Shown in pieces: positions 2,471 to 24,733 of a stretch of 26,556 nt of DNA. The stretch's first letter is position 1. The number at the start of each line of letters is the position of its first letter. Source of the DNA: a virus. The stretch lies in the UHGV virus genome UHGV-0062447; one strand, written 5' to 3'. The translations under genes were made by a program, and so were the position numbers. The notes below the pieces were generated by a model, which saw only the letters and a program-made list of their open reading frames with translations, was not told the DNA's origin and searched no databases.

Positions 2471-2816
2471 TCTCTGCTCCTGTTGATACTGAAAGGGACA
2501 CAGGCACACCGTTATTCCGCCGCCCGGTCAGCTCCACCACCATTGAACCGTCAAAATTGCTGTTAATAGTGATGGAATCCAGCGTCAGCCGTGGCTCCCA
2601 GCGACTCAGTGCCACATACACAGCCGACATAACCTGCAGGCGTAACGCCGGATTTTGTGGCTGATCTATCAGTGCCGACAGCAGGGAACCATATTCCCGA
2701 CGGGCAATGCGGCTACCCTGCGGCGTCAGCAGAATGTCCCGCACCGACTGGCGCAGATGGTCAATATCAGTAATGGCTTTACCGCTGGTATTGTTCATCC
2801 CGCTATAAAGCGTCAT
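2457..2816 (-). CDS. W: Baseplate wedge protein W (gp25/GPW family)
   Basis: 119-aa ORF, ATG at 2814-2816 overlapping V stop; size and position match P2 gpW (about 115 aa). Confidence 0.75.
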   Translation of the reverse strand: MTLYSGMNNTSGKAITDIDHLRQSVRDILLTPQGSRIARREYGSLLSALIDQPQNPALRLQVMSAVYVALSRWEPRLTLDSITINSNFDGSMVVELTGRRNNGVPVSLSVSTGAENGSD

Positions 2817-3391
2817 ACCGGGCCTCCGGTTGTGTCGCCGCCTTTCAGGACGCCAGTATGCTGATGCGCATCAACCACGATCCCGTTAGAACTCATCGCT
2901 CCGCCGCCCTGGGTAACGCCACCATTGATCACCACTTCGCTGTTAATGCGCGTGCGGTCAGCCTCCAGTACAAACTCACTGGTTTTCAGGGTGATGTTGC
3001 CAGCGGCCTCAATGACCATTGATTTGATGCCCCTGACATACCAGCGCCCGGTGGCGGGTTCGTATTCAAACCAGCCACCGTCAGGATGTTCTGTCACGCA
3101 GGCGTCCGCCGACGTCGACGGTGGCGCGAACTGATTCGAATAGATGGCGGGTAACGCAAAGGCTGTTTCCAGATTGCCGCCCAGACTAAGCAGCACCACC
3201 TGCTCACCTTCCGATGGTCGCCACCATGTGCGGGCATTCCCGGCACGCAGCGTCAGCCAGCTGATCCAGTTGGTTTCAAGCTCGCCCGTTTTCACCCGGC
3301 AAAGCCAGTTCTCCCGGTCCACTTCGGTGACTACCCCAGTGCGGATCAGGTTGGTGATAAGGCGCATGATTTCGGTTAGTTGTGCGTTCAT
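2813..3391 (-). CDS. V: Baseplate spike/hub protein V
   Basis: From ATG at 3389-3391: MNAQLTEIMRLITNLIRTGVVTEVD...WWRPSEGEQVV...HQHTG... aligns with P2 gpV as recalled; the ORF-track upstream extension (36 codons) is probably not translated. Confidence 0.85.
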   Translation of the reverse strand: MNAQLTEIMRLITNLIRTGVVTEVDRENWLCRVKTGELETNWISWLTLRAGNARTWWRPSEGEQVVLLSLGGNLETAFALPAIYSNQFAPPSTSADACVTEHPDGGWFEYEPATGRWYVRGIKSMVIEAAGNITLKTSEFVLEADRTRINSEVVINGGVTQGGGAMSSNGIVVDAHQHTGVLKGGDTTGGPV

Positions 3392-3437
3392 AGGGTTAGG
3401 TTGCACGGACCTTGAATCTATGGCATCAATACGTCCT

Positions 3438-3455
3438 TGTGTGGTAAATGACACA
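3438..3455. promoter_or_regulatory. TGT-N12-ACA dyad (P2 Ogr / 186 B late-activator-type site) upstream of V
   Basis: Sequence TGTGTGGTAAATGACACA read directly; P2 late promoters carry TGT-N12-ACA upstream of the -35 region. Spacing to the V start (about 55 bp to the ATG) is shorter than expected, so tentative. Confidence 0.3.
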
Positions 3456-3486
3456 AATACAATTCCAATCGAAGAAAGGTAAAAGA

Positions 3487-4017
3487 ATGAGCCATCCAAT
3501 TGATTATTACGCTATAGAAGAACACGCAAGAATAATTGAGCAATTATGCTGTTCATCTGAATTTTATTTACAGCGTATATATTCCACACAGAAAGTATAT
3601 GATGGTTCTATAGTAACTGAATTTGAAATGGAGGAGTTATCGTACAACGGATGGTTGGAATATACCATTAGCAACAATCTTATTAGCCTTTGTACAAAAC
3701 TACGAATTCTCCAAGACACTAATGAACATGAGTGGAACCCAGATTACTCACCTGAGAAAGAAGCATTTGAAGAACATGAAAATATACTTTTTGTTATAGA
3801 TGGTCATGTTAAAGGTTCTATACGCGAATGCTGCAATAAAATTATTCACGCATTAAGTTTTGAGTTAACAAAAAAGACCGGCAAAAATGGAATAAAATAT
3901 TGGGATGGTTCTATTATTGCTTCTGGGGTTCAAAACAAAAAAAACTGGAAAATTAAAATAGACCTTTTCCCTTTTTGCCAAAGCATAAAAAGTTATTTAA
4001 GTTTATTAAGTGCGTAA
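3487..4017 (+). CDS. Hypothetical protein (176 aa), low-GC cargo gene between V and S on the opposite strand
   Basis: ORF 3448..4017; preferred start ATG 3487 preceded by AAAGG (gaaaggtaaaagaATG); alternative ATG at 3448. Coding sequence is very AT-rich relative to flanking core genes. No motif recognised. Confidence 0.65.
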   Translation: MSHPIDYYAIEEHARIIEQLCCSSEFYLQRIYSTQKVYDGSIVTEFEMEELSYNGWLEYTISNNLISLCTKLRILQDTNEHEWNPDYSPEKEAFEEHENILFVIDGHVKGSIRECCNKIIHALSFELTKKTGKNGIKYWDGSIIASGVQNKKNWKIKIDLFPFCQSIKSYLSLLSA

Positions 4018-4022
4018 ACATT

Positions 4023-4475
4023 CTAATTTTTCATCAAAAAATACTTTAAAAGTAAATCTCTTACTTCATTTTCAGTATGTTCATTTAAACCCAGCAATTT
4101 TCGGGATGGATACTTAATGACTCCCCCCTTTGGACTGACGCGATCGCGCAGGCCGTAATGATGAACGCGGGCAATGCGCTGCACCTTACCTTCAAACTGT
4201 ACGCTGGCAGAATCCGCGCTGGCGGCGGTTTTCAGGTATTTTGTGGTGCGCAGCTTTGCAAACATCTGACGTTTGATGCGCCCTTTTTTACTTCGTGCTG
4301 TTACCCGTCGCGGTTCATAGCTGCTGCCGTCAGGGTTGCGCTGCATCCTGATATTCTGCTGCTGTGTCCGGCGCAGTTCCTGCGCCAGCTGGCGCATCAT
4401 GCGGCTTCTGGCGGCTGGTTCCAGATTCGCCAGCAAGGCACTCAGCCAGTCGTCCACTTTCTGCAGTTCAGCCAC
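4023..4475 (-). CDS. S: Tail completion protein S
   Basis: 150-aa ORF with GTG start at 4473-4475 overlapping R stop; gpS-like translation and position. The last ~35 codons (4023-4130) are AT-rich. Confidence 0.8.
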   Translation of the reverse strand: MAELQKVDDWLSALLANLEPAARSRMMRQLAQELRRTQQQNIRMQRNPDGSSYEPRRVTARSKKGRIKRQMFAKLRTTKYLKTAASADSASVQFEGKVQRIARVHHYGLRDRVSPKGGVIKYPSRKLLGLNEHTENEVRDLLLKYFLMKN

Positions 4476-9978: not shown

Positions 9979-11745
9979 ATGAACACCACACTGACACCCA
10001 CAGATCTCGATCCCCGTCGGCAGGCCATGCTGCTGTACTTTCAGGGATACCGCGTAGCCCGCATTGCTGAAATGCTGGGCGAGAAAGTTGCAACCGTTCA
10101 CAGCTGGAAGAAACGCGACAAGTGGGGTGACTATGGGCCGCTGGATCAGATGCAGCTCACCACCGCCGCCCGCTACTGCCAGCTCATTATGAAGGAGCAC
10201 AAAGAAGGGAAAGATTTCAAAGAGATTGACCTGCTGGCGCGCCAGTCGGAACGCCACGCGCGGATCGGCAAGTTTAACAATGGCGGCAACGAAGCCGACT
10301 TAAACCCTAACGTCGCCAACCGCAACAAAGGCCCGCGCCGTCAGCCGGAAAAGAATGTTTTCACCGATGAGCAGATTGAGAAGCTGGAAGAAATCTTCCA
10401 TTCCTCCATGTTCAACTACCAGCGCCACTGGTGGGAAGCCGGAAAAACCAACCGCATCCGCAACCTGCTGAAATCACGCCAGATCGGCGCGACCTTTTAC
10501 TTTGCCCGTGAAGCCCTGATTGACGCTCTGCTTACCGGACGTAACCAGATTTTCCTTTCCGCCAGTAAGGCACAGGCCCACGTCTTTAAGCAGTACATCA
10601 TCGACTTCGCCAAAGAAGTCGAGGTGGAGCTGAAAGGCGATCCGATGGTGCTTCCTAACGGGGCCACGCTTTACTTCCTCGGCACCAATGCCCGCACGGC
10701 CCAGAGTTACCACGGCAACCTGTATCTGGATGAATATTTCTGGATACCGAAATTCCAGGAGCTGCGCAAAGTGGCTTCCGGTATGGCTATTCACAAAAAA
10801 TGGCGACAAACCTATTTTTCCACGCCATCCAGCCTGACACACAGTGCTTATCCGTTCTGGTCCGGTGCGCTGTTCAACCGGGGGCGCAACAAAGCCGATA
10901 AGGTGGACATCGACCTGTCCCACAGCAATCTGGCCCCCGGCCTGCTGTGCGCAGACGGGCAGTACCGCCAGATAGTCACCGTGGAAGATGCGGTGCGCGG
11001 CGGCTGTAACCTGTTCGACCTTGACCAGTTGCGCATGGAGTACAGCCCGGACGAATACCAGAACCTGCTGATGTGCGAGTTTGTGGACGATCTCGCGTCC
11101 GTGTTTCCGCTCAGCGAGCTGCAGGCGTGCATGGTGGACAGCTGGGAAGTCTGGACCGACTTTCATGCACTGGCGCTGCGCCCGTTTGGCTGGCGCGAGG
11201 TGTGGATCGGTTATGACCCGGCAAAAGGTACGCAGAACGGCGACAGCGCCGGGTGCGTGGTGGTGGCACCGCCAGCCGTGCCGGGCGGTAAGTTCCGCAT
11301 TCTTGAGCGTCACCAGTGGCGCGGGATGGACTTCCGCGCTCAGGCTGACGCCATCAAAAAACTGACCGAACAGTACAACGTGACATATATCGGCATCGAC
11401 TCGACAGGTGTCGGTCACGGAGTTTATGAGAACGTGAAAGCGTTCTTTCCTGCCGTCCGGGAGTTTGTCTACAACCCCAACGTTAAAAACGCCCTGGTAC
11501 TCAAGGCCTACGACATTATCAGCCACCGCCGTCTGGAGTTTGACGCCGGACACACCGACATTGCGCAGTCATTCATGGCAATCCGTCGCGCAACCACCGC
11601 CAGCGGCAACCGCCCGACCTATGAAGCCAGCCGCAGCGAAGAAGCCAGCCACGCCGATCTGGCCTGGGCAACAATGCACGCACTGTTTAACGAACCGCTG
11701 CAGGGCGAATCCGCCAATACCAGCAATATTGTGGAGATTTTTTGA
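9979..11745 (+). CDS. P: Terminase ATPase (large) subunit P
   Basis: 588-aa ORF, ATG 9979; P2 gpP-like translation; stop overlaps Q start (ATGA). Confidence 0.9.
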   Translation: MNTTLTPTDLDPRRQAMLLYFQGYRVARIAEMLGEKVATVHSWKKRDKWGDYGPLDQMQLTTAARYCQLIMKEHKEGKDFKEIDLLARQSERHARIGKFNNGGNEADLNPNVANRNKGPRRQPEKNVFTDEQIEKLEEIFHSSMFNYQRHWWEAGKTNRIRNLLKSRQIGATFYFAREALIDALLTGRNQIFLSASKAQAHVFKQYIIDFAKEVEVELKGDPMVLPNGATLYFLGTNARTAQSYHGNLYLDEYFWIPKFQELRKVASGMAIHKKWRQTYFSTPSSLTHSAYPFWSGALFNRGRNKADKVDIDLSHSNLAPGLLCADGQYRQIVTVEDAVRGGCNLFDLDQLRMEYSPDEYQNLLMCEFVDDLASVFPLSELQACMVDSWEVWTDFHALALRPFGWREVWIGYDPAKGTQNGDSAGCVVVAPPAVPGGKFRILERHQWRGMDFRAQADAIKKLTEQYNVTYIGIDSTGVGHGVYENVKAFFPAVREFVYNPNVKNALVLKAYDIISHRRLEFDAGHTDIAQSFMAIRRATTASGNRPTYEASRSEEASHADLAWATMHALFNEPLQGESANTSNIVEIF

Positions 11746-12773
11746 TGGGAAAGAGTAAGAAGAACCGCGCTGCGGCGACGAAACAGCTCCAGCTTAAAAA
11801 CCAGACTACAGCCGAAGCATTCAGCTTCGGCGATCCCGTTCCTGTTCTGGACCGCCGAGAACTGCTGGACTATGTGGAATGCGTACAGATGGATCGCTGG
11901 TATGAGCCGCCCGTCAGCCTTGACGGACTGGCACGAACCTTCCGCGCCGCCGTGCATCACAGCTCACCAATTGCGGTGAAATGCAACATTCTGACCAGTA
12001 CCTACATCCCTCACCCGCTGCTCAGCCAGCAGGCTTTTTCACGTTTTGTGCAGGACTATCTGGTATTTGGTAACGCCTACCTGGAGAAACGCACGAACCG
12101 CTTCGGTGAAGTTATCGCCCTTGAGCCTGCTCTGGCAAAATACACCCGACGCGGGTTAGACCTGGATACCTACTGGTTTGTACAATACGGCATGACTACG
12201 CAGCCGTATCAGTTCACGAAAGGCAACATTTTTCATCTGATGGAACCGGACATCAACCAGGAGATCTACGGCCTGCCCGGTTATCTTTCTGCAATTCCGT
12301 CAGCTCTGCTCAACGAGTCCGCCACGCTGTTCCGCCGCAAGTATTACATTAACGGCAGTCATGCAGGCTTCATCATGTACATGACCGATGCAGCGCAGAA
12401 CCAGGAGGATGTGAACAACCTCCGCAATGCGATGAAAAGCGCCAAAGGTCCTGGTAACTTCCGTAACCTGTTTATGTACTCGCCTAACGGTAAAAAGGAC
12501 GGGCTTCAGATTATTCCTCTGTCAGAAGTCGCGGCAAAGGATGAATTTTTGAATATCAAGAACGTGAGCCGGGATGACATGATGGCAGCACACCGAGTGC
12601 CGCCGCAAATGATGGGGATAATGCCGAATAATGTTGGGGGATTTGGGGATGTGGAGAAGGCTAGTAAGGTTTTTATGCGTAATGAATTGATACCGCTACA
12701 AAACAGAATAGAAGAACTCAATAAATGGCTCAAAGATGACATAATAAAATTCATGCCATACAGTTTCATATAA
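11745..12773 (+). CDS. Q: Portal (capsid vertex) protein Q
   Basis: 342 aa from ATG 11745; P2 gpQ-like; the last ~110 bp of coding sequence are markedly AT-rich. Confidence 0.85.
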   Translation: MGKSKKNRAAATKQLQLKNQTTAEAFSFGDPVPVLDRRELLDYVECVQMDRWYEPPVSLDGLARTFRAAVHHSSPIAVKCNILTSTYIPHPLLSQQAFSRFVQDYLVFGNAYLEKRTNRFGEVIALEPALAKYTRRGLDLDTYWFVQYGMTTQPYQFTKGNIFHLMEPDINQEIYGLPGYLSAIPSALLNESATLFRRKYYINGSHAGFIMYMTDAAQNQEDVNNLRNAMKSAKGPGNFRNLFMYSPNGKKDGLQIIPLSEVAAKDEFLNIKNVSRDDMMAAHRVPPQMMGIMPNNVGGFGDVEKASKVFMRNELIPLQNRIEELNKWLKDDIIKFMPYSFI

Positions 12774-12778
12774 AACTA

Positions 12779-12799
12779 AGGGCCGAATACCTCGGCCCT
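12779..12799 (-). terminator. Rho-independent terminator hairpin (8-bp stem AGGGCCGA/TCGGCCCT) with U-tract on the minus-strand transcript
   Basis: Stem-loop read directly, immediately 3-prime of the 557-aa minus-strand gene; the T-run on the minus strand overlaps the last codons of Q. Confidence 0.6.
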
Positions 12800-12804
12800 C
12801 TACA

Positions 12805-14478
12805 TTAAGATTTATGGCTAAAGAGTATACCTGTAACAGAACGTTGATAGGCATCAAGCTTCTCTTGCCTCTGCTTAAATTTAGATTTGATATCACTAAT
12901 ACTCGGAATACCTATTACTCCAAGGCCTGCACTTAACGTCGCTAAAGTAGTATTGCCAGTCAGCGCTCCAGCAATTGCTATAGCACCATTTGCGATACAT
13001 GGTAGGACATCTAGTCCGTAAATTCTCAATTTCTCTTTTTGGGCTTTTGCAAGAATCCTTTGATGTTCAATAAAAGCCCGGTCTACATTATCAATTACTT
13101 TTTGCGTTGTCCTCGAAAAGCTCTCTGCCGAAGAATTGATTAAAGAGTCAACACCATTTGATAAGATGGATCTTACATCCTCCATCAATTTGTTACGTCT
13201 CAACTCAATTATTTTATTGACCGGTACATTTCCTAACCATGAAAAACCATCTTGCATACCAGCAGATAACGCATGAACCATATGCAAATTTTTTAGTTCA
13301 ATATCATTGACATCAAAATTAAGAGATTCGTACTCAATAAGCCAAGTATAATAGAGCCAAGATGTGTCTGCATTTATATATGGAGTACTACCAAGTTCTT
13401 GTGCATTACATTTTGCTGAATAGGCTTGCGGCATTCTTCCAATGCAGGAAAGGAAAACCTCCATTCCAGCATGATCACCAACAACATTACGTGATATTCT
13501 TTTTTTATCAGATAGTAGTTTTTCTAATTGAGTTTTTGGATTTAGCCCCCATGCTGTATCAAAAATAAGTCTATCTGCTCTCTTAATATTTTTAAGAACA
13601 GCATCAATATCATTCATCGAATAACTAAAATCTTGAAATTCATCGTAGCTTTCGAACCGTCGATCATAGAGATATTGCGCATGAGTCAGAGCATAAGGCT
13701 CACAAAAACTCATCAAATTTTTTTTGCTCTCAGTTTCAAAATCTCTTCTATCCGGCAAAATTAATACTATTGCTGGCTCTATATCTTCAAGCGCTACTTC
13801 TTTATATGTCATACATGTTAGGACATGCTTTAGAAGTATCCTTGTAAACTCAGCCTTATCTGACTTTTCATAGAGACGACCGACTCTTAATATAGGACAT
13901 GGAAGTGAAATAGTATCAACATACAACCCTGCAATAGAGACAGCATTCTCATCAAATGCAGGAAATAAGTCACCAGAAAAATTAGCTTTAAACTGAGAAC
14001 CATCCTGCAAATGTATTACACCAATATCGGATGTTACCTGCCAAAACTCTATTACCTGATTATATAACTCAGGAAAAACATCTTCTATTTGCTTAACATA
14101 TTCTTCTTGTTGAGAAAAAAAACTTGATGCTTTATGTGGCGTTGCATTAGTTTTTTTCATCAGATAAAACAACTCGCCAAAATTACTAAAAAGAATATTA
14201 AAGTAAGAACTTTGCAAGTCCTGAATAGAGTATTTGTTTTTTATATCTTCTCTTTCTAAAAAGTGATTAACCGCTGCTCCCATAGCCTTTATTCTGCCAT
14301 CAACAGTAGAAGGGTCAACTTTACCATCCTGTCGCAGCCTTATTCTTTTAAAACTTTCAATAAAACCTTCTACAAGATGATGAGCTATTTTTAGTTTTCC
14401 CGCTTCCAGTTGTTGCTTAATGAGAAAAACACGCTCAGTTAAATCGTCTACATATTCCTCATCTTGATATTTTTCCAT
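12805..14478 (-). CDS. Hypothetical 557-aa protein with C-terminal hydrophobic/glycine-rich hairpin; low-GC cargo gene between Q and cos
   Basis: Single long ORF, ATG 14476-14478 with GGAG 6 nt upstream; very AT-rich; C-terminal segment ...LPCIANGAIAIAGALTGNTTLATLSAGLGVIGIPSI... is hydrophobic; no Walker motif or other domain recognised by eye. Confidence 0.8.
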   Translation of the reverse strand: MEKYQDEEYVDDLTERVFLIKQQLEAGKLKIAHHLVEGFIESFKRIRLRQDGKVDPSTVDGRIKAMGAAVNHFLEREDIKNKYSIQDLQSSYFNILFSNFGELFYLMKKTNATPHKASSFFSQQEEYVKQIEDVFPELYNQVIEFWQVTSDIGVIHLQDGSQFKANFSGDLFPAFDENAVSIAGLYVDTISLPCPILRVGRLYEKSDKAEFTRILLKHVLTCMTYKEVALEDIEPAIVLILPDRRDFETESKKNLMSFCEPYALTHAQYLYDRRFESYDEFQDFSYSMNDIDAVLKNIKRADRLIFDTAWGLNPKTQLEKLLSDKKRISRNVVGDHAGMEVFLSCIGRMPQAYSAKCNAQELGSTPYINADTSWLYYTWLIEYESLNFDVNDIELKNLHMVHALSAGMQDGFSWLGNVPVNKIIELRRNKLMEDVRSILSNGVDSLINSSAESFSRTTQKVIDNVDRAFIEHQRILAKAQKEKLRIYGLDVLPCIANGAIAIAGALTGNTTLATLSAGLGVIGIPSISDIKSKFKQRQEKLDAYQRSVTGILFSHKS

Positions 14479-14579
14479 AAACGCTCCATTAAAATATTTA
14501 ATAATGCATATAAGAATAGTTAATAATATTTACAGTAACTATATCACATTAGATCCAGATTGTTACACTGTTGCGCGCG

Positions 14580-14598
14580 CTCGTATCCCCGCCACGCC
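14580..14598 (-). other. Putative cos site (cohesive-end sequence)
   Basis: Minus-strand sequence GGCGTGGCGGGGATACGAG; the first 13 nt match the P2/186 cohesive-end sequence as I recall it (GGCG[A/T]GGCGGGGAAAGCA[C/T]), followed by a CGCGCGC tract as in the P2 left end. Location between Q and A is as expected. Confidence 0.5.
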
Positions 14599-14640
14599 TG
14601 CCCGCTTTATGTAGCGGTTTTCATGCGCCTGCATGACATA

Positions 14641-14667
14641 AGCAAAAGCCCGCCACTCCTGGCGGGC
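14641..14667 (-). terminator. Rho-independent terminator (GCCCGCC-ACTCCT-GGCGGGC stem-loop, T-run on minus strand)
   Basis: Read directly; lies about 95 bp 3-prime of the 203-aa minus-strand gene. Confidence 0.65.
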
Positions 14668-14758
14668 CTCAGCTAAAACGATCCTCAAACGATCATGCGG
14701 ATTCATGCGGCATAGACATGCACAATCTCCAAAGCGGGCATCGAGACTTTTTGGAAAC

Positions 14759-15370
14759 CTACGTAACCACAGTTAATGTGTGCATCCTGTCTCGAATTGC
14801 ATCACACGTCTCATCAAAAAGCTTGGTGATGGTTGTACAGTTCAACTCCGCCTCTTTCCAATAATTTTGCCCGTCAAATTCTGGATCGCTATGCTTAAAC
14901 GATATTGACTCTGAAAGGCATTCCTTCCGGAAACGGTCCAAGATTATATAAACCTCTGGTGAGATGAACGGTTTGTTAGATTCAACACTTGTAACAAAAG
15001 TGTTAAATGCATCAAAAAAAACTTTCAACCTTCTAAATTTTCTCTCTTCAAATGGTTCGTTGGGGTCAACATGATCCAGCGCAGGCCTCAGCTTAAGCAC
15101 GCTTTCTCTGGTTTCAAACATCGAATTCCAAATGAGACTATATGCTGATAACTCCTTATCAAAATACGCTTTCGTTACATAAACAGAATTGTCTAACTTA
15201 GCCTTTATTCTTTCATTAGTTGCACTCAGTTGTGATTGAAATTCAGCAATATCTTTGTTTAGCCGCGACTTATATCTTTCTAAATAAACTTTCCCGATCC
15301 AAACAAATATGCCAGATGCAACAAAAGACACCCCACCCAACGAAGCCAGAACTTTAAAGACTAAATCCAT
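14759..15370 (-). CDS. Hypothetical 203-aa membrane-anchored protein (N-terminal TM helix); low-GC cargo gene between cos and the SOS operon
   Basis: ATG 15368-15370 preceded by AGGTGGGGG; N-terminus MDLVFKVLASLGGVSFVASGIFVWIG is a predicted TM helix; AT-rich; nothing recognised in the remainder. Confidence 0.8.
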   Translation of the reverse strand: MDLVFKVLASLGGVSFVASGIFVWIGKVYLERYKSRLNKDIAEFQSQLSATNERIKAKLDNSVYVTKAYFDKELSAYSLIWNSMFETRESVLKLRPALDHVDPNEPFEERKFRRLKVFFDAFNTFVTSVESNKPFISPEVYIILDRFRKECLSESISFKHSDPEFDGQNYWKEAELNCTTITKLFDETCDAIRDRMHTLTVVT

Positions 15371-15752: not shown

Positions 15753-15986
15753 TTAGTGCAGCCAGCTGTCGTCTTCCCAAACCTGTTGCATAATTTCCAT
15801 CACCCGCTTTTTGTCTTCATCAAGCTTTAAGCCACTCAGCTCAACGCCGTTTGCCGCCCCTTTACGGATGCGGATAGCGGTCTTGGGATAGATGGGTTGC
15901 AGGTTGCGGTAAAGCTCGGACTCCAGAGCGTCCAGGGTAGACTGGCTAATCTTCTGCTCTTTATCGATCATTATTTCAATGCGCAT
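15753..15986 (-). CDS. DinI-family protein (77 aa), 186 Tum C-terminal-like
   Basis: From ATG 15984-15986: MRIEIMIDKEQKISQSTLDALESELYRNLQ...GAANGVELSG...EDKKRVMEIMQQVWEDDSWL parallels E. coli DinI (MRIEVTIAK...DALAGELSRRIQ...AAANNLSVIG...EDKQRISEILQETWE) as I recall it; SD GAGGTGA upstream. Confidence 0.8.
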   Translation of the reverse strand: MRIEIMIDKEQKISQSTLDALESELYRNLQPIYPKTAIRIRKGAANGVELSGLKLDEDKKRVMEIMQQVWEDDSWLH

Positions 15987-15996
15987 AAAAGTCACC

Positions 15997-16185
15997 TCAA
16001 CTGATGACATCCATTGAGCGGTTGTATTCGTGGGTTCTGATTTTTGCCATGAGTTCATCTGTTAGTTCAGAAACCCACTGCAAAGCCAGCCCCTTCTCTT
16101 CATCACTACACTCACTAGCCGCTACAAGCTTAAGAAAAAAATCAATGCGCTGGAGCTTCAAAGACTCCAAAAAATAGTCCTGCAT
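15997..16185 (-). CDS. Small protein (62 aa), first cistron of the LexA-controlled operon
   Basis: ATG 16183-16185 preceded by GGAGGAAAAATG; ends 10 nt before the dinI-like ATG. Confidence 0.6.
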   Translation of the reverse strand: MQDYFLESLKLQRIDFFLKLVAASECSDEEKGLALQWVSELTDELMAKIRTHEYNRSMDVIS

Positions 16186-16338: not shown

Positions 16339-18753
16339 TTAATACATGTTCCGCCATTTATCATCCTCCTGCAGACGCTGGTTCCGATAGAAGATACGCA
16401 GGCCTGCTCCTGACGGAATACTGCCACCGCGAAGGAGCAACTCGACCTCTTTCTCGCTGCCATCAAATCCTCTGGACTTCAGTTCATAGACAAGCTGCTG
16501 TCGCTGATGGTCTGTAATTCGCTGTTTGTAGTCTTTACGCCGTTTCGGTTTCACCAGGCGTAACCTTGCTGCCAGTTCCCGGCGATCTTTTTTGCTCATA
16601 CTGTGCAGGTAATCGTGCAACTCCTTGTCATTCATACGGGTAATATCCGTTCTGGAGTCCCCATCAGCTGATTTGTTTTTCCCTTGTTGGTTCAAATTTT
16701 CAGCAAGGGGACAGTTATTGCCACGAGTCCAAGGGGCGCAAGCGCCCTGGTCGGCTGCCGCCTCCTGAACGTCAACGGCCTTACGAACCATTTTCCACTT
16801 CACCGCATGAGTGCAGATCTTGCCCTCTGCAATGGGTGACCAGATGCCATAAATACGAATACCGTGATCGCCATAGGCGGTTGGCTCTTCGTTGATTTCA
16901 TAAGCGGTTCTGATGAGGTGATATTTACGGGGAACCAGTACGCCGCCCTGCTTCATGATATAGGTGGCAAAACAACCAGCATCAGCAGCAGCCAGAATGG
17001 CATCAAGGCGCGGGTTATCCAGTACCGGCGCACCTGCTTTTTTGTCACCCTGTTGCCTTGCCGCCTGACCAGCCAGCAATCGCAGTTCACGGTAAGCCTG
17101 ACGCCCCGGAATGCCAAAGAAGCGGAATTGCTGAACACGATGCAGAGACGCCCAGGCATTAACGTATTCAGCGTTATCACGCAGGGATTTACCCGTTTCC
17201 TTGCTGATCTCCCCAGCCAGACCACGCCCGTCAATGTTCTTACTGATGTATTTCGCGATATAGCTTGTTGGCGTACCTTTGCGCGGGTTTATCAGCTCAG
17301 ACTTAAAGCGTGGTCCCGTGTTATTGCCCAGCTCCTCGCGGTCTTCACGGATGGCAAACTTACGCAGTAATGCAGTGATGGCGCGGCGGTCTTTTTTACG
17401 CATGAAACACATGAGATGCCAGTGCACAGTACCGTCATGATGCGGCTCAGCTACCCGCACGCCATACCAGCGCAACTCGGCTTTATGCATAGCCTTACGA
17501 AATGCAGCAAACATGCCGACCAGATAATCGCTACTTTGTCTTACCGTCGCGTTTGTCCAGGTCGGGTTTGGTCTGCCGTTATTGAGCGTGGAATGGAAAC
17601 GCGACGGACAGGTGATAGTGTAGAAAACGGCACAGTCACTGCGCATTTCCGCGATAAGCTCCAGACCTTTAACACAGGCCATCATCTCATTGCGGCGATG
17701 CGCCGGGTTGCTGCTGCTGGCGTTTACCACATCTTCCATATCCAGCGTGTCGCCGTCTTCGTTCACCAGTTCATGAGAACGAAAAAACTCCAGCGACTTA
17801 CGGCGCTGCTCACGTTTATGCATCACGGCTTCATAGCTGACATAGGGGGATGCTTTTTTGCTGACCAGGCAGACAGCACGCAACTGCTCTTCCCGCCATT
17901 CGCAACGCATCTTCCATAATTTCCGATACCACCAGTCGGCACACAACATACGCGCCAGCGAACCCGGGATGAGTTCATAGGGCACTGGTTTGCGGCGGTT
18001 TCTTTTCCGACGAAGTTTCTCAAACGCAGGCGGGATAACATCCAGACGCAGGGTTTCCGCTGCCACCTTTTCCCATGTCTTGCGGATTTCTTCTGGCTTA
18101 ACGTCATCGGTGGCATACAAGTCACCACAAGCGTCCTCAAGACACATGCTCATATGCGCTGCTACCAGGGTGGACAGGCGTTTCACCTGATCCTGGCTCA
18201 TTTCAGGCAGGATCAGCAGACCCTCCAGCCCTTGATGGCTTGCCATAAAACGGAAAGAAACAGATAGCTGACTGTCACGTACACAATCCAGTCGCTCCAG
18301 ACATGGCTTAATCGTCTCACGCAAATAGCGGGAATAAGCCTTTGGCCTGCCCAGGCTGCTGAAGTATTCAATACGTTGCATCAGCGGCTTGCTGATATGG
18401 GAAGGCTGGGCGTTTACGTCCGCCAGAATGACCATGTCCGGATTAAAACGCTGCTGCTCATGCGCCAGCTTTGCCCGGCTAATGAGCTTATCCTGCTCCA
18501 TTTCGCGCTGGACAGGATCACGGGATTCATTAAAGAAATAACGCTCCCAGACCTGCTCACTCAGTGCCTCGCGGCGCAGTTGTTCCTGCTCGTTATCGGC
18601 AGCGTACAGAGTGATCAGGTTTGAAAGTGCAGACTCCGGCGCAACTTCCGCCGGGTCCAGATAAGGGTTAATGGCCTTTTTCGAGCCGTTCCATGAAAAT
18701 GCTGCGGCGGCCTCGTTAAAGCCGCTGCAATTGTTCATATCGTCATGACTCAT
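16339..18753 (-). CDS. A: Replication initiation protein A (rolling-circle endonuclease), P2/186 gpA-like
   Basis: 804 aa from ATG 18751-18753 (overlaps dam stop as ATGA); large protein in the expected position, with translation recognised as P2/186 gene A family. Confidence 0.85.
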
Positions 18754-19607
18754 ACACACACTCCGTACACGGCAGAACTATCCACGCCACGCGAAGGATC
18801 AAATCCCAACCAGCAGCTCGGCCCGGAAACAGCAATGATTTCTGTTGCAGATTTACCCTCGCCAGCTGACACGCCGATGCTGCGTTTTGCCTTGATATAG
18901 TGGTGAGTAAAATTGCGATACAGCGAACGAATCAGGGATGTGTCATTGTTAGAAACAATGACCGGATGTCCTTCTGATGACCGATGTTCAAGAATGGATG
19001 CCAGGTGATACTGGTCATCTTCAGTGAAACCATCAGTGTGATAGCCGGAAAACGTACCGTCATACGGCGGATCGCAATACACCACATCCCCCACCTGCAG
19101 CATCGCCAGCGTTTCATCAAAGCTCGCGCAGATAAACGTTGCCCGCTGGGCTTTCTCTGCAAATGCGCGAATTTCTTTTTCAGGGAAATACGGATTTTTA
19201 TAATTACCGTAGGGAATGTTGAAATACCCGCTCTTGTTATAGCGACATAAACCACGGTAACCGTGACGATTGAGATACAGGAAATATATCGCCTTCATGA
19301 AATCAGTAATTTCAGTTGAGTAATTAAACTCCTGTCTTATGTTGTAATAAGCCAGCTCACTGTTTGCTTCCTCAAATAAAACTTTGGCACGAGATATAAA
19401 CGCTTCGCAATCAGCGGCAATCTTTTTATAGAGGTTGATTAAATCAGGATTAATATCCGCAACCAGATAGCTGGGGTAATCCGTCGCCATCATCACAGCA
19501 CAAGAACCCGCGAAAGGTTCAACCAGTCGCGGGCCAGCAGGAAGGTATTTTTTCAGTTCGGACATAATGGCGGTTTTATTACCCGCCCATTTCAGGATGG
19601 TGCTCAT
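18750..19607 (-). CDS. dam: DNA adenine methyltransferase (Dam-like, N6-adenine MTase)
   Basis: From ATG 19605-19607: [23 protein letters not shown]...FAGSCAV... and a DPPY catalytic motif ([14 protein letters not shown]). Confidence 0.85.
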
Positions 19608-19831
19608 ACAGCACCTCCGTTGTAATGTTTGCCTTTCAGCTCTGCGATTTCCTGGCAGGTAATGCAAAGCTGCACTCCAGGAATGGCACGGCGGCGTGCT
19701 GGCGGAATTGGCGCTTCACACTCAACGCAAAGCACGCGGGACACGCCCGGCGTTTTGGCGCGGGCAGCACGGATATGACGCTGGCGTTCTTCTTCAACGC
19801 GCTGCTGTACGAGATCCATTGCATCAGCCAT
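19604..19831 (-). CDS. TraR/DksA-family C4 zinc-finger protein
   Basis: 75 aa with CVEC...CITC motif; ATG overlaps the upstream stop; stop overlaps dam start. Confidence 0.75.
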   Translation of the reverse strand: MADAMDLVQQRVEEERQRHIRAARAKTPGVSRVLCVECEAPIPPARRRAIPGVQLCITCQEIAELKGKHYNGGAV

Positions 19832-21050: not shown

Positions 21051-21509
21051 ATGACTAAACAAAGCTCCGAATACTTCCAATTACACTACTGTTATTACCT
21101 TGAACTAATGACAGCAACGTTCCATGGTCGAGCTGATAAATTAATGACAGCAATCCAACTTATAAGCGGAACAGCTGTATTTGCTAATACAGGTCTGGAA
21201 TGGTTGTTCGCTTTTCCTGTTGTTGTAATCGCAACAATCCAACTTGTATGGCAACCAGCTATTATTGCGGAACGAGCAAGCGTACAAAGCCGACAATATG
21301 GTGAGTTGCTTTACGCCGAGGATGAATTGTCTCCACAGTTCATTGCACAAAAATTGAAAGCTTTGCATCACTCTGACTCCACAACATTCGGATCTTTGTT
21401 AAACCCTGCCTACAAAAGAGCTGCTATTGCCTGTGGTCGGGTTGACGATGTAAACCTCAGCTTCCAAGAAAAACTTTTCGCTTGGTTCGCAGGTTGTTTG
21501 CCACGTTAA
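21051..21509 (+). CDS. Hypothetical membrane protein (152 aa, two predicted TM helices), opposite strand to the early operon
   Basis: ATG 21051 with AGGAAT upstream; hydrophobic segments LMTAIQLISGTAVFANTGLEWLFAFPVVVIATIQLVW; lower GC than the surrounding backbone; followed by hairpin CCCCGG-N11-CCGGGG (21545-21567). Confidence 0.65.
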   Translation: MTKQSSEYFQLHYCYYLELMTATFHGRADKLMTAIQLISGTAVFANTGLEWLFAFPVVVIATIQLVWQPAIIAERASVQSRQYGELLYAEDELSPQFIAQKLKALHHSDSTTFGSLLNPAYKRAAIACGRVDDVNLSFQEKLFAWFAGCLPR

Positions 21510-22271: not shown

Positions 22272-22475
22272 TTAAGCAGACAAAGCATCAACAGTCAGAG
22301 CAGCCAGGTTAATCATTACCTTTTCACGTTTTTTGTCTTTACGAAGACGATGACGAGGTAGTCGGCCATCAGCCAACATGTCGTTAATCGTATCAATAGA
22401 AAGGCCAGTCAGTTCGCTATAACGTTCGATTGTGACATGTGGTGTATTCAGAGTAATTGAAATGTTAGGTGTCAT
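22272..22475 (-). CDS. apl: Apl/Cox-like excisionase and lytic-promoter repressor
   Basis: 67-aa HTH protein, first gene of the lytic operon, divergent from cI; ATG 22473-22475. Confidence 0.7.
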
Positions 22476-22564
22476 AAGGCAACATTCCTTCTAGATATGG
22501 CTTGTGGCGAGCCGTTGTTTGTCGTGATTAGTAGTGAAGGCTCCAAAAGAAGACTTCTGGTTCA

Positions 22565-22593
22565 ACTTTAAGATCGCTTTTGGAATCTGTCAA
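22565..22593 (-). promoter_or_regulatory. Lytic promoter (pR-like): -35 TTGACA, 17-bp spacer, -10 TAAAGT on the minus strand
   Basis: Read on the minus strand: TTGACAgattccaaaagcgatctTAAAGT. Directed toward apl and located inside the cI leader, the face-to-face arrangement described for 186 pR/pL. Confidence 0.55.
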
Positions 22594-22620
22594 CGAATTT
22601 TGGATTTCTTTGGAGGATTT

Positions 22621-23190
22621 GTGGATTTCAATAGCGGCGGTAAGAAAGCCATAGAACGTTTGGTTGAAGCATACGGGTTCGGTACCCGTCAGGCTCTCTG
22701 TGATCATTTAGGTGTTTCTAAGAGCACCATGGCAACGCGTTATATGCGTGATATTTTTCCGGCAGATTGGGTAATCCAGTGCGCCCTTGAAACGGGTACC
22801 TCGCTTAATTGGCTAACAACAGGGCATGGTTCAAAGCAAGCATCAGCAAATACAAATACTATAGAAGTAGTAAAATATTTATTGTCTGATGGAGCATTGC
22901 AGGAAGACGGTTTTTATATTTTTGATAAGGGATTTCTACCCTCTACGTTTAAAAAACCTTTTGTCATCACAGATAACAATTCTGAATTTATTTGTGATAA
23001 AGAATTTGATGATATACGTGATGGTAAATGGGTAATAAGTATTGATGGCGAAATAACAATCCGCGACATCACTCGTTTACCCGGTGGAAGAATTTTCGTT
23101 GAAGGTGGAAACAGAGCCTTCGAGTGCAAGATAGAAGATGTTGAAATAATTGGAAAAATTATAAGCTTAACAGTTAAGTATGTTAGATAA
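22621..23190 (+). CDS. cI: CI immunity repressor (186 CI family)
   Basis: Preferred GTG start at 22621 preceded by GGAGG (ORF-track start 22534 is also GTG). N-terminal HTH region (...AIERLVEAYGFGTRQALCDHLGVSKSTMATRYMR...ALETGTSLNWLTTGHG) and C-terminal pattern (WVISIDGEITIRDITRLPGG...GGNRAFECKIEDVEIIG) parallel 186 CI; C-terminal half is AT-rich. Confidence 0.8.
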   Translation: MDFNSGGKKAIERLVEAYGFGTRQALCDHLGVSKSTMATRYMRDIFPADWVIQCALETGTSLNWLTTGHGSKQASANTNTIEVVKYLLSDGALQEDGFYIFDKGFLPSTFKKPFVITDNNSEFICDKEFDDIRDGKWVISIDGEITIRDITRLPGGRIFVEGGNRAFECKIEDVEIIGKIISLTVKYVR

Positions 23191-23205
23191 TACCTGGAGG
23201 AAACT

Positions 23206-23388
23206 ATGCTTGGTAAGTTTTTTTTTGTGGTTTTATCATGCTCTTTGTTATTAAACCCACTAACTACCTATGCTAAAAATTATCCTTGTTCTGGGAAAAA
23301 GGGAGGTGTCTCTCACTGTACCTCTGATGGAAAATTTGTTTGCAATGATGGAACCATCAGTAAATCCAAAAAAACATGCATCAAATAA
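23206..23388 (+). CDS. Small predicted secreted Cys-rich protein (60 aa: signal peptide plus ~37-aa mature peptide with 4 Cys)
   Basis: ATG 23206 with GGAGG 5 nt upstream; [60 protein letters not shown]; AT-rich; starts 15 bp after the cI stop. Confidence 0.65.
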
Positions 23389-23401
23389 TAAGGAAATATG
23401 A

Positions 23402-24733
23402 ATGAGCACAGATATAACTTTCGATATACGTGATGAATATAAAAGAAAAGCCATTGCAGAAAAAATAATAAGTTTGCTAGAGTCTAATATTCCTGTTTCA
23501 CCTATGGTCATAGATGGGGACTGGGGGACTGGAAAAACAGAGTTTTCAAAAAAGTTAGCATCCTTAATTGAAATAAACTCGACCAATCATAAAGTAGTTT
23601 ATATAGATGCTTTTACTGAAGATCACAACGATGCTCCCATACTTACAATAATGGCCGCAATTGCAGCTCTATATAATAGCGATGAAAAAAAGGAATTAAT
23701 ATCTAAGGCATTGCCAGCCCTCAGATTCGGACTTAAGACTGTACTCAAAGCTGGTGCTGGTTGGGTATTAAAACAAAATGCGGATGAAATTAATGAGGAA
23801 TTTGAAGAGGTTATCAAAGACGCTGCAAATTCAGCTATCGATGGAACCATCGAGGCTCTGTTAGAAGATCATATCGAGGCACAAAAGAACGTTCTTGCTC
23901 TAAAAGAAGTACTAACCAAATTAGCTGGAGAAAGTAAACTAACAATAATTATAGATGAGTTAGACAGATGTAAGCCTAGTTTTGCCATTTCTATTATTGA
24001 AAATATAAAACATGTTTTTGATATAAAAAACATTAACTTTTTATTAATTGCAAACACAACTCAACTAAAAGCATCCATAAATCATATCTATGGCTCTTCT
24101 GTAGACTCCAACCGTTATCTTGACAAATTTATAAAATTTACATACAGCCTTCCTGTTACCTTTAAGGAAGATAATTATAATGACACTTTAACTTCCAAAA
24201 ATCATTGGATGATGCTATGTGAGCAATCTGAAAGGCTGACCGCTGCAGTAGAAGCCAGCGAAGATATTTTCTTACAGTTCATTGAAAGTAGAAAATTATC
24301 ATTACGTGAGGTTGAAACACTTGCTAGATATGTTGAAATATACCAACTACTATCAGGCGACAAAATTAGCAACAAATATATTTATGGATATTGTTATTAC
24401 AGGACTCTAGCGATAATAATCTACACTTTTAACCGAGAGTTAGCTCTCAACTTTCTTGAAGATAAAGTTGATGCTCAATCAATCATGAAATTGTTTGGTT
24501 TGTCTAAATTTTCATATCAAACAAGTGAATATAATGTAGATAATTATGAATATGCTATATTTGGAATAGTTTACAAATACTTATCTGAAAACTCATCTCT
24601 TTTACCTACTGAGGAAAATATAAAAAGACAATGGGCAGAAATGAGTGAATACCATTTTTTAAAAGGTAGTGGCGGTATTGGTGAACCAACAAATATTGTG
24701 AAAGATGCTTTAAAAGTTTTTTTACTTCAGTGA
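23402..24733 (+). CDS. KAP-family P-loop NTPase (443 aa)
   Basis: Walker A in the KAP-typical form GDWGTGKT and Walker B IIIDELDRC (DxLDRC); AT-rich; ATG 23402 preceded by AGGAA. Confidence 0.75.
   Translation: MSTDITFDIRDEYKRKAIAEKIISLLESNIPVSPMVIDGDWGTGKTEFSKKLASLIEINSTNHKVVYIDAFTEDHNDAPILTIMAAIAALYNSDEKKELISKALPALRFGLKTVLKAGAGWVLKQNADEINEEFEEVIKDAANSAIDGTIEALLEDHIEAQKNVLALKEVLTKLAGESKLTIIIDELDRCKPSFAISIIENIKHVFDIKNINFLLIANTTQLKASINHIYGSSVDSNRYLDKFIKFTYSLPVTFKEDNYNDTLTSKNHWMMLCEQSERLTAAVEASEDIFLQFIESRKLSLREVETLARYVEIYQLLSGDKISNKYIYGYCYYRTLAIIIYTFNRELALNFLEDKVDAQSIMKLFGLSKFSYQTSEYNVDNYEYAIFGIVYKYLSENSSLLPTEENIKRQWAEMSEYHFLKGSGGIGEPTNIVKDALKVFLLQ

Follow-up and report, generated by a model that had tools for sequence, protein, structure and literature searches.

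Accessory cargo is probably exchanged together with the 3' ends of portal gene Q and gene S in a P2/186-like prophage

In this work, we will consider how accessory genes are exchanged in a P2/186-like prophage, and how far into the neighbouring core genes the exchanged unit extends. The DNA under study, referred to as the window, is the whole 26,556-nt stretch of virus genome UHGV-0062447, in which the prophage is drawn reversed relative to the P2 map. We will focus on portal gene Q, on the AT-rich accessory gene (cargo) that converges on it, and on the cos site beyond, and we will argue that the last ~110 nt of Q are probably part of the mobile unit. We will then examine whether the same holds for tail-completion gene S and for the repressor gene cI.

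The locus and the loci compared

The order Q, cos, replication gene A is that of P2 and 186, and the cargo region lies between Q and A, adjoining cos. In P2 and 186, cos is found 174-183 nt past the portal stop codon; in the window this distance is 1813 nt, so that an open reading frame (ORF) of 557 amino acids (aa) sits between Q and cos. This ORF has no match in Pfam and a weak match to DitB in PADLOC (E 5.9e-10), and promoter-like matches are no commoner than in shuffled sequence. The ORF is followed by a terminator-like hairpin whose tail, the U-tract AGTTTTATAT (12777-12768), runs into Q. The initial annotation had placed this tract within the final codons of Q; the overlap is there, but it covers the stop codon and the last sense codon only. 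The cos core, whose reverse complement reads GGCGTGGCGGGGATACGAG, is embedded in a conserved island of 150 bp. The coordinates of these and all other features are collected in Table 1.

Every ORF of 90 aa or more was listed; most were matched by eye to their P2/186 homologues, and ten were run through Pfam. For the comparisons, 160 loci encoding relatives of Q were gathered from IMG/VR, mostly from enterobacterial isolates, each with 4 kb of flanking DNA; the selection used peptide patterns of the Q body together with the best overall tblastn score. The core set consists of 79 loci with Q proteins sharing 92-98% amino-acid identity, and the comparison of S covers 80 loci and the window.

Table 1. 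Positions of the features discussed, in window coordinates.
Feature	Position	Strand	Description
Q conserved body	11742-12659	+	Pfam Phage_portal; ~60% amino-acid identity to P2 gpQ and 186 W
Q tail	12660-12773	+	last 38 codons and stop; AT-rich, hypervariable among relatives, probably inherited with cargo
Terminator-like hairpin of the 557-aa cargo gene	12778-12800	-	converging on Q
557-aa ORF, slot-1 cargo	12805-14478	-	AT-rich, converges on Q; GC 0.35, third-codon-position GC 0.25
Conserved cos island	14577-14726	.	150 bp; cos core ~14583-14601
Putative left-crossover interval, most recent transfers of the window cassette	12491-12522	+	from L323, L324, L326, L327
S tail	4023-4130	-	last ~36 codons; AT-rich, specific to adjacent inserted gene
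189-aa ORF, inserted gene (moron) between V and S	3448-4017	+	GC 0.32, converges on S
186-type cI repressor	22534-23190	+	Pfam Phage_CI_repr and Phage_CI_C; excluded as cargo junction
KAP NTPase insert between cI and int	23375-24724	+	1.35 kb; both junctions outside cI
KAP NTPase gene	23402-24733		Pfam KAP_NTPase; PADLOC PDC-S20 (candidate defence family), E 2.6e-171
Portal gene Q	11742-12773	+	late gene
Terminase P	9979-11745	+	late gene
Tail-completion gene S	4023-4475	-	late gene
V	2813-3499	-	late gene
203-aa ORF	14759-15370		in slot 2, which starts at 14727
Replication gene A	16339-18759	-

A boundary inside the portal gene

From the letters alone, it had been noticed that Q turns AT-rich and cargo-like over its last ~110 bp, and this observation holds: the 114 nt of the tail have a GC content of 0.31, against 0.51 in the 600 nt that precede them and 0.35 in the adjacent 557-aa ORF. 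More generally, the GC content of the cargo is 0.32-0.35, compared with 0.5-0.58 in the core genes, and among 10,732 overlapping 114-nt segments of the core late genes not a single one falls to 0.40 or below (minimum 0.421). The start of this shift, at 12660, coincides with a jump in diversity among the relatives. Indeed, across the 79 loci, nucleotide diversity is 0.01-0.15 in the Q body, climbing toward 12659, where it passes from 0.08 to 0.32; it is 0.24-0.45 in the tail, against 0.08 immediately upstream, and reaches ~0.67 beyond the stop codon. At third codon positions, with one representative per tail type, the corresponding step is from 0.22 to 0.66, and third-position diversity climbs from 0.06 to 0.44 as the boundary is approached, a rise that linkage to the cargo would predict. 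The step at 12659 is directly visible in the alignment; when a change-point with two rates is fitted to each pair, the median position is 12659, and 68% of the 1317 pairs lie within 12648-12671. A Chi site was considered as the cause of such a fixed junction and rejected, as GCTGGTGG is not present in the whole window.

On the other side of the cargo, the boundary is set by cos. When the loci are anchored on cos, diversity within the island is 0.01-0.18, against 0.59-0.72 to its left and 0.5-0.58 to its right, while it stays at ~0.67-0.72 across the cargo. Slot 1 extends from 12660 inside Q to the cos core at ~14577; the cos island is its right boundary and homology arm, and also forms the left edge of a second cargo slot, in which lies a 203-aa ORF with no match in Pfam or PADLOC. 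Loci that share the slot-1 cargo of the window differ in slot 2, and the two slots flanking cos thus appear to assort independently.

The portal gene tail is inherited with the cargo

The proposal that the C-terminus of Q travels with the cargo, for which an alignment across P2-like prophages had been suggested as a test of co-variation, is borne out by several comparisons. Over the 79 loci, 52 clusters of tails correspond almost one to one to 50 clusters of cargo (adjusted Rand index 0.91, the best of 2000 permutations giving 0.10). Over 143 loci, the 115 pairs with alignable cargo show a correlation of 0.945 between tail identity and cargo identity, with a slope of ~0.88. Where the cargo is at least 99% identical, the tails are 0.99 identical, compared with a mean of 0.96, and values down to 0.91, for the Q bodies. 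Conversely, the 9,949 pairs without cargo similarity have a mean tail identity of 0.63, and only one of them reaches 0.9.

The window cassette itself illustrates this linkage. Among 5,426 complete Escherichia coli genomes, the 557-aa ORF is found in 19 records, always at least 99% identical, and the records whose match runs from the Q 3' end through the tail into the 3' end of the cargo are also 19 in number; in ~980 other E. coli records with a related Q, the alignment ends before the stop codon. Four loci (L323, L324, L326 and L327) differ from the window by 4.1-5.3% in the Q body, by 0 of 114 positions in the tail, by 0.3-0.5% in the cargo and by 10-14% in the cos island. The last mismatches before the tail stand at 12491-12521, and the near-identical block extends from 12491-12522 to ~14615, just beyond the cos core. 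The cassette has been transferred between diverged Q backbones, and the pattern of mismatches places the left crossover inside Q. Two further loci, L020 and L021, display the same pattern of transfer of tail and cargo on differing backbones. The mobile cassette thus appears to consist of the Q tail and the cargo, bounded by the Q body and cos, and the last ~38 codons of Q are probably inherited with the neighbouring accessory, and probably defensive, genes.

Loci devoid of cargo, in which cos lies 111-260 nt past the Q stop codon (P2, 186 and several enterobacterial prophages), have tails with a GC content of 0.45-0.68, near that of the body, and a consensus resembling LQELNDWLGEEVIRFEPY. In cargo-bearing loci, the GC content of the tail is 0.26-0.50.

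Candidate exceptions to this linkage were inspected. Seven pairs appeared to combine the same cargo with different tails, but their cargo is in fact 60-85% identical and their tails have diverged to match. An apparent case of the same tail beside unrelated cargo, L080, is explained by an element of the IS3 family inserted 77 nt past the Q stop codon, and no genuine case of this kind was found among the compared loci. The Q tail of L080 is identical to those of L036 and L056, and a cI-like gene lies downstream, which points to a rearrangement. In locus L325 (IMGVR_UViG_3300028995_000083, ~2248-2463 flipped), the last 72 codons of Q are found beside the same 557-aa cargo, with unrelated GC-rich DNA upstream of the Q remnant; this is a rearranged remnant that has kept the cassette. 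In L328 and L329, which belong to another prophage lineage, a 59%-identical homologue of the 557-aa cargo lies between Q and cos, adjoining Q. This pair was also considered as a test of co-divergence, but its tail is 59% identical to that of the window, as unrelated tails are (mean 0.63), which is compatible with co-divergence and uninformative. Finally, in-frame stops, truncations or frameshifted ends in the Q homologues of L119, L147, L141, L158 and L120 suggest decaying prophages.

Constraint on the portal tail

The Q tail is still homologous to those of P2 and 186, and the C-terminus of the protein can be aligned with those of P2 gpQ and 186 W. In its first 15 codons the protein is conserved (ASxVFVRNELxPLQ) while synonymous sites are saturated; in the last ~23 codons the protein varies too, and the pattern E-L-N-x-W-L-x-x-x-I/V-I-x-F-x-x-Y is kept. 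The ratio of non-synonymous to synonymous change (dN/dS) is ~0.16 in the tail against 0.02 in the body, about a seven-fold difference, and structural positions are conserved. Judged from these substitution patterns, the Q tails appear functional and under relaxed constraint, with no sign of positive selection. Over 116-120 unique tails, the GC content of the tail is correlated with that of the cargo (r = 0.73-0.78), compared with 0.24 for the body, and as cargo GC falls, the tail gains residues encoded by AT-rich codons (FYMINK) and loses GARP residues. A search of PDB with the Q and S sequences gave no match to a solved structure. In a P2 cryo-EM preprint, residues 27-340 of gpQ were modelled, so the tail region belongs to the ordered part of the portal; according to the preprint there is no crown domain.

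The same arrangement at the end of gene S

The initial annotation had extended its proposal to the 3' end of S, next to the moron inserted between V and S, and here too the comparison supports it. The S tail (~108 nt) has a GC content of 0.31, against 0.58 in the remaining part of the gene, and the last 30 codons give 0.36 and 0.18 in successive blocks of 15. The inserted 189-aa ORF, which has no match in Pfam or PADLOC, stops 5 nt from the S stop codon. The gap between S and V is 66 nt in 58 of the 80 loci; these loci have no insert, and all 58 share one common GC-rich tail (...DDVEAMTRDMILQWLAG, GC 0.54-0.59). In the other 22, all of which carry an insert, the gap is 629-2161 nt (629 nt in the window), and the tails are AT-rich in every case and fall into six types, one per type of insert. 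When S of the window is compared with insert-free S, identity drops from at least 0.87 to ~0.4 at nt 345 of 453 (window ~4130). The S/V slot extends from the V promoter region to this point inside S. In addition, the S tail of the window recurs unchanged in L167 (identity 0.93-1.00 over the last 120 nt), where the S body is diverged. From these alignments, the last ~36 codons of S are therefore likely to be inherited with the neighbouring accessory gene. A terminator of the 189-aa ORF within the S tail would have explained the linkage functionally; it was looked for, but no terminator-like structure lies in the tail or follows the ORF.

The cI gene is not a cargo junction

The third gene for which a travelling C-terminus had been proposed, cI, behaves differently. 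Its C-terminal half is indeed AT-rich (GC 0.32, against 0.47 in the N-terminal part), but this holds for composition only. The KAP NTPase gene is absent from ~73 of 80 relatives, in which the spacing between cI and int is 386-396 nt, and the C-terminal halves of cI in these relatives are 92-95% identical in nucleotides to that of the window, with a GC content of 0.32-0.34; it is the N-terminal, immunity-specific half that is the more variable one. Homology with one such KAP-less locus, L246, runs from 22342 to 23374 and resumes at 24725, so that the insert begins 184 nt past the cI stop codon. The same AT-rich C-terminus is thus found without linked cargo, which refutes the proposal for cI: its AT-rich half appears to be a property of the gene family and not a cargo junction. 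The sole trace of a linkage effect is found in the last 133 nt of cI, which hold 14 of 22 mismatches to the KAP-less relatives.

A model of cargo exchange and its alternatives

The explanation that we favour, with a probability of roughly three in four, is that, in each of two accessory slots, the boundary lies within the 3' end of the converging core gene, and that the cargo is swapped by crossovers inside these core genes. With each cargo type comes its own version of the last ~36-38 core-gene codons, diverged and apparently still functional. P2-like phages that reside in or infect the same cell would swap cargo by homologous recombination. One crossover would fall in the conserved gene body, with the Q body acting as the left homology arm (~12491-12522 for the window cassette), and the other at the cos island or close beside it (for the S slot, in the region near V); alternatively, as PMC9122126 speculates, the exchange could start from the cos end. 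Since there is no homology between different cassettes past the stop codon, uncoupling a tail from its cargo would need a crossover within ~110 bp, which should be rare. Being almost fully linked to the cargo, the tail would thus be spared the recombination by which the rest of the gene is kept uniform, and would diverge to synonymous saturation under relaxed purifying selection and drift toward the AT-rich composition of the cargo, either by AT-biased mutation without homogenising conversion or by inheritance from AT-rich donor phages. The boundary would remain sharp if conversion tracts end where heterology begins.

Several points weigh against this explanation. Passive linkage predicts a gradient, not a step common to more than 50 cassettes, so that the sharpness of the step is not fully explained; we only infer that tracts stop at heterology. 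The recombination pathway is likewise one that we infer, with crossover positions read from mismatch patterns, and the AT-richness could originate either from mutation in place or from import from a donor. The step is blurred and lies nearer to 12615 in relatives that are more distant (76-90% amino-acid identity). A conserved DNA element just upstream of 12660, which had been considered as a recombination anchor, was rejected on this ground, since a step that shifts to ~12615 is incompatible with a universal, fixed element. The choice of loci by Q-body patterns somewhat inflates the conservation of the body, with no pattern covering 12632-12661, and the pairwise statistics are not phylogenetically independent. 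The junction in S also varies with the cassette; relative to the stop codon it is found at roughly -108, -75 or -45 nt. Finally, orf30 of P2 (NC_001895) occupies the same S/V slot, is convergent to S and is AT-rich (GC 0.34) like the moron of the window, but it is separated from S by a 70-nt spacer with an annotated terminator, and the S tail there is of normal GC content (0.47-0.56). The P2 junction is thus intergenic, and in-gene junctions are not universal in the family.

Among the alternatives, the one that survives best is a variant that differs in the source of the AT-richness, and we regard it as possible, at clearly less than even odds. It holds that each cassette, made up of cargo and gene end, came from a P2-like phage living in a low-GC host, the crossover lying inside Q or S, and that the tail is AT-rich since the entire donor gene was. 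The correlation between tail GC and cargo GC (r = 0.73-0.78) is consistent with such an import, as is the homology of the tails with those of Q and S, as opposed to random sequence; the GC content of P2-like viruses, which spans ~35-70% (PMC13100340), also counts for it. However, the GC content of the tails in cargo-bearing loci forms a continuum from 0.26 to 0.50, the tails of short-cargo loci are near the consensus, more than 50 independent imports would be unlikely to share one junction within ~20 nt, and an AT-rich full-length donor Q was not identified.

A second alternative is that selection preserves the linkage, with a functional match between the cargo and the C-terminus of the portal or of S, for instance to avoid a portal-sensing defence of the phage itself, or with the tail DNA serving as 3' untranslated region, terminator or silencing region of the cargo. 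The overlap of the cargo terminator with the end of Q, the 5 nt that separate the stop codons of the 189-aa ORF and S, the often defensive nature of the cargo at the gpA-gpQ hotspot (PMC9122126) and a tail dN/dS about seven times that of the body all lend themselves to this idea. We nevertheless hold it to be improbable, as the dN/dS of the tail, ~0.16, is far under 1, the amino-acid changes follow AT content, the S tail is without any terminator-like structure, and co-adaptation at the protein level does not require synonymous saturation. A slightly less probable form of it would make each cassette a defence gene paired with its matching "self" label, in which the resident would be invisible to its own portal- or tail-sensing defence while invaders would be recognised, or in which the tail would be a 3' regulatory region of the cargo.

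The variable region of diversity-generating retroelements usually occupies the 3'-terminal stretch of a gene, and a variable stretch of ~110 nt at the 3' end of a structural gene could therefore bring to mind targeted hypermutation by such an element or a similar one, or else a cargo-independent diversifying selection on the portal C-terminus. This is effectively refuted: a short-word blastn search of the window found no second (template) copy of either tail (longest match 16 nt), synonymous sites of all kinds vary, and identical cargo comes with identical tails even on diverged backbones. That the composition and codon usage are a chance fluctuation, for which nothing but the small size of the segment could be argued, is already refuted by the 0 of 10,732 core-gene segments at or below a GC content of 0.40 and by the coincidence of the compositional step with the comparative one.

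Relation to known systems

In the Juhala/Hendrix model of lambdoid morons, the junctions lie at gene boundaries. The inserts of the window resemble such morons in that a gene of foreign composition stands between genes that are neighbours in the relatives (S-V gap of 66 nt, Q-cos distance of 111-260 nt), in the orientation of its own transcription unit. The extra gene and its distinct composition are both present, and a terminator-like hairpin follows the 557-aa ORF and none follows the 189-aa ORF. A junction at the gene boundary is found for the KAP insert and not for Q and S, where, unlike in lambdoid morons, the last ~36-38 codons of the core gene are replaced by a homologous, diverged version.

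In classical population genetics, genes flanking hypervariable bacterial loci are known to hitchhike with them, as does gnd beside the O-antigen cluster, or the flanks of hsd. The likeness lies in the diversity of a conserved gene, which rises toward a variable locus subject to diversifying or frequency-dependent selection, and in the co-inheritance of flank alleles. In contrast to these flanks, the system described here belongs to a phage, is limited to ~110 nt, shows a step besides the gradient, and has a composition that shifts toward that of the cargo.

The cos-proximal accessory and defence hotspot between gpA and gpQ (the old/tin locus) and the S/V (orf30) slot are already known (Rousset et al. 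2022, PMC9122126; PMC13586616; 10.1101/2024.10.15.618418), and an exchange via cos together with a homologous event was speculated earlier in the first of these. The window shares with the hotspot a site between portal and replication genes beside cos, an extreme turnover of the cargo, and AT-rich, partly defence-like cargo. As far as the consulted portions of these publications go, they bound the hotspot by whole flanking genes taken as intact borders, whereas the boundary in the window is 114 nt inside Q; the same portions make no mention of a junction in Q, of a cargo-linked portal C-terminus or of two slots around a 150-bp cos island.

The hotspots of P2 are a major source of new anti-phage systems, and the route by which their cargo is exchanged is still only a matter of speculation. 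Our data put one crossover within portal gene Q and assign the other to the cos island, so that the pathway of exchange becomes open to test. Hotspots delimited gene by gene would miss part of the mobile unit, and portal and S proteins that look like core proteins would be chimeric; the tail, being saturated, is best left out of phylogenies and of tests for recombination. As a barcode of the cargo type, the ~110-nt tail could also be of use, and the AT-rich decay of a non-recombining gene segment may offer a natural test of mutation bias versus gene conversion in phage genomes.

Other features of the prophage

The immunity region consists of 186-type cII, apl and cI, followed by the KAP NTPase gene and int. 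Between cos and gene A, a DinI-like ORF is found at 15753-16058, in a position that presumably resembles that of the tum antirepressor of 186. Two other places could mark further mosaic pieces: a 152-aa ORF of the early region (21051-21509), with no match in Pfam or PADLOC, and a drop in GC content to 0.40 at 19201-19500, inside a 305-aa ORF (18750-19667).

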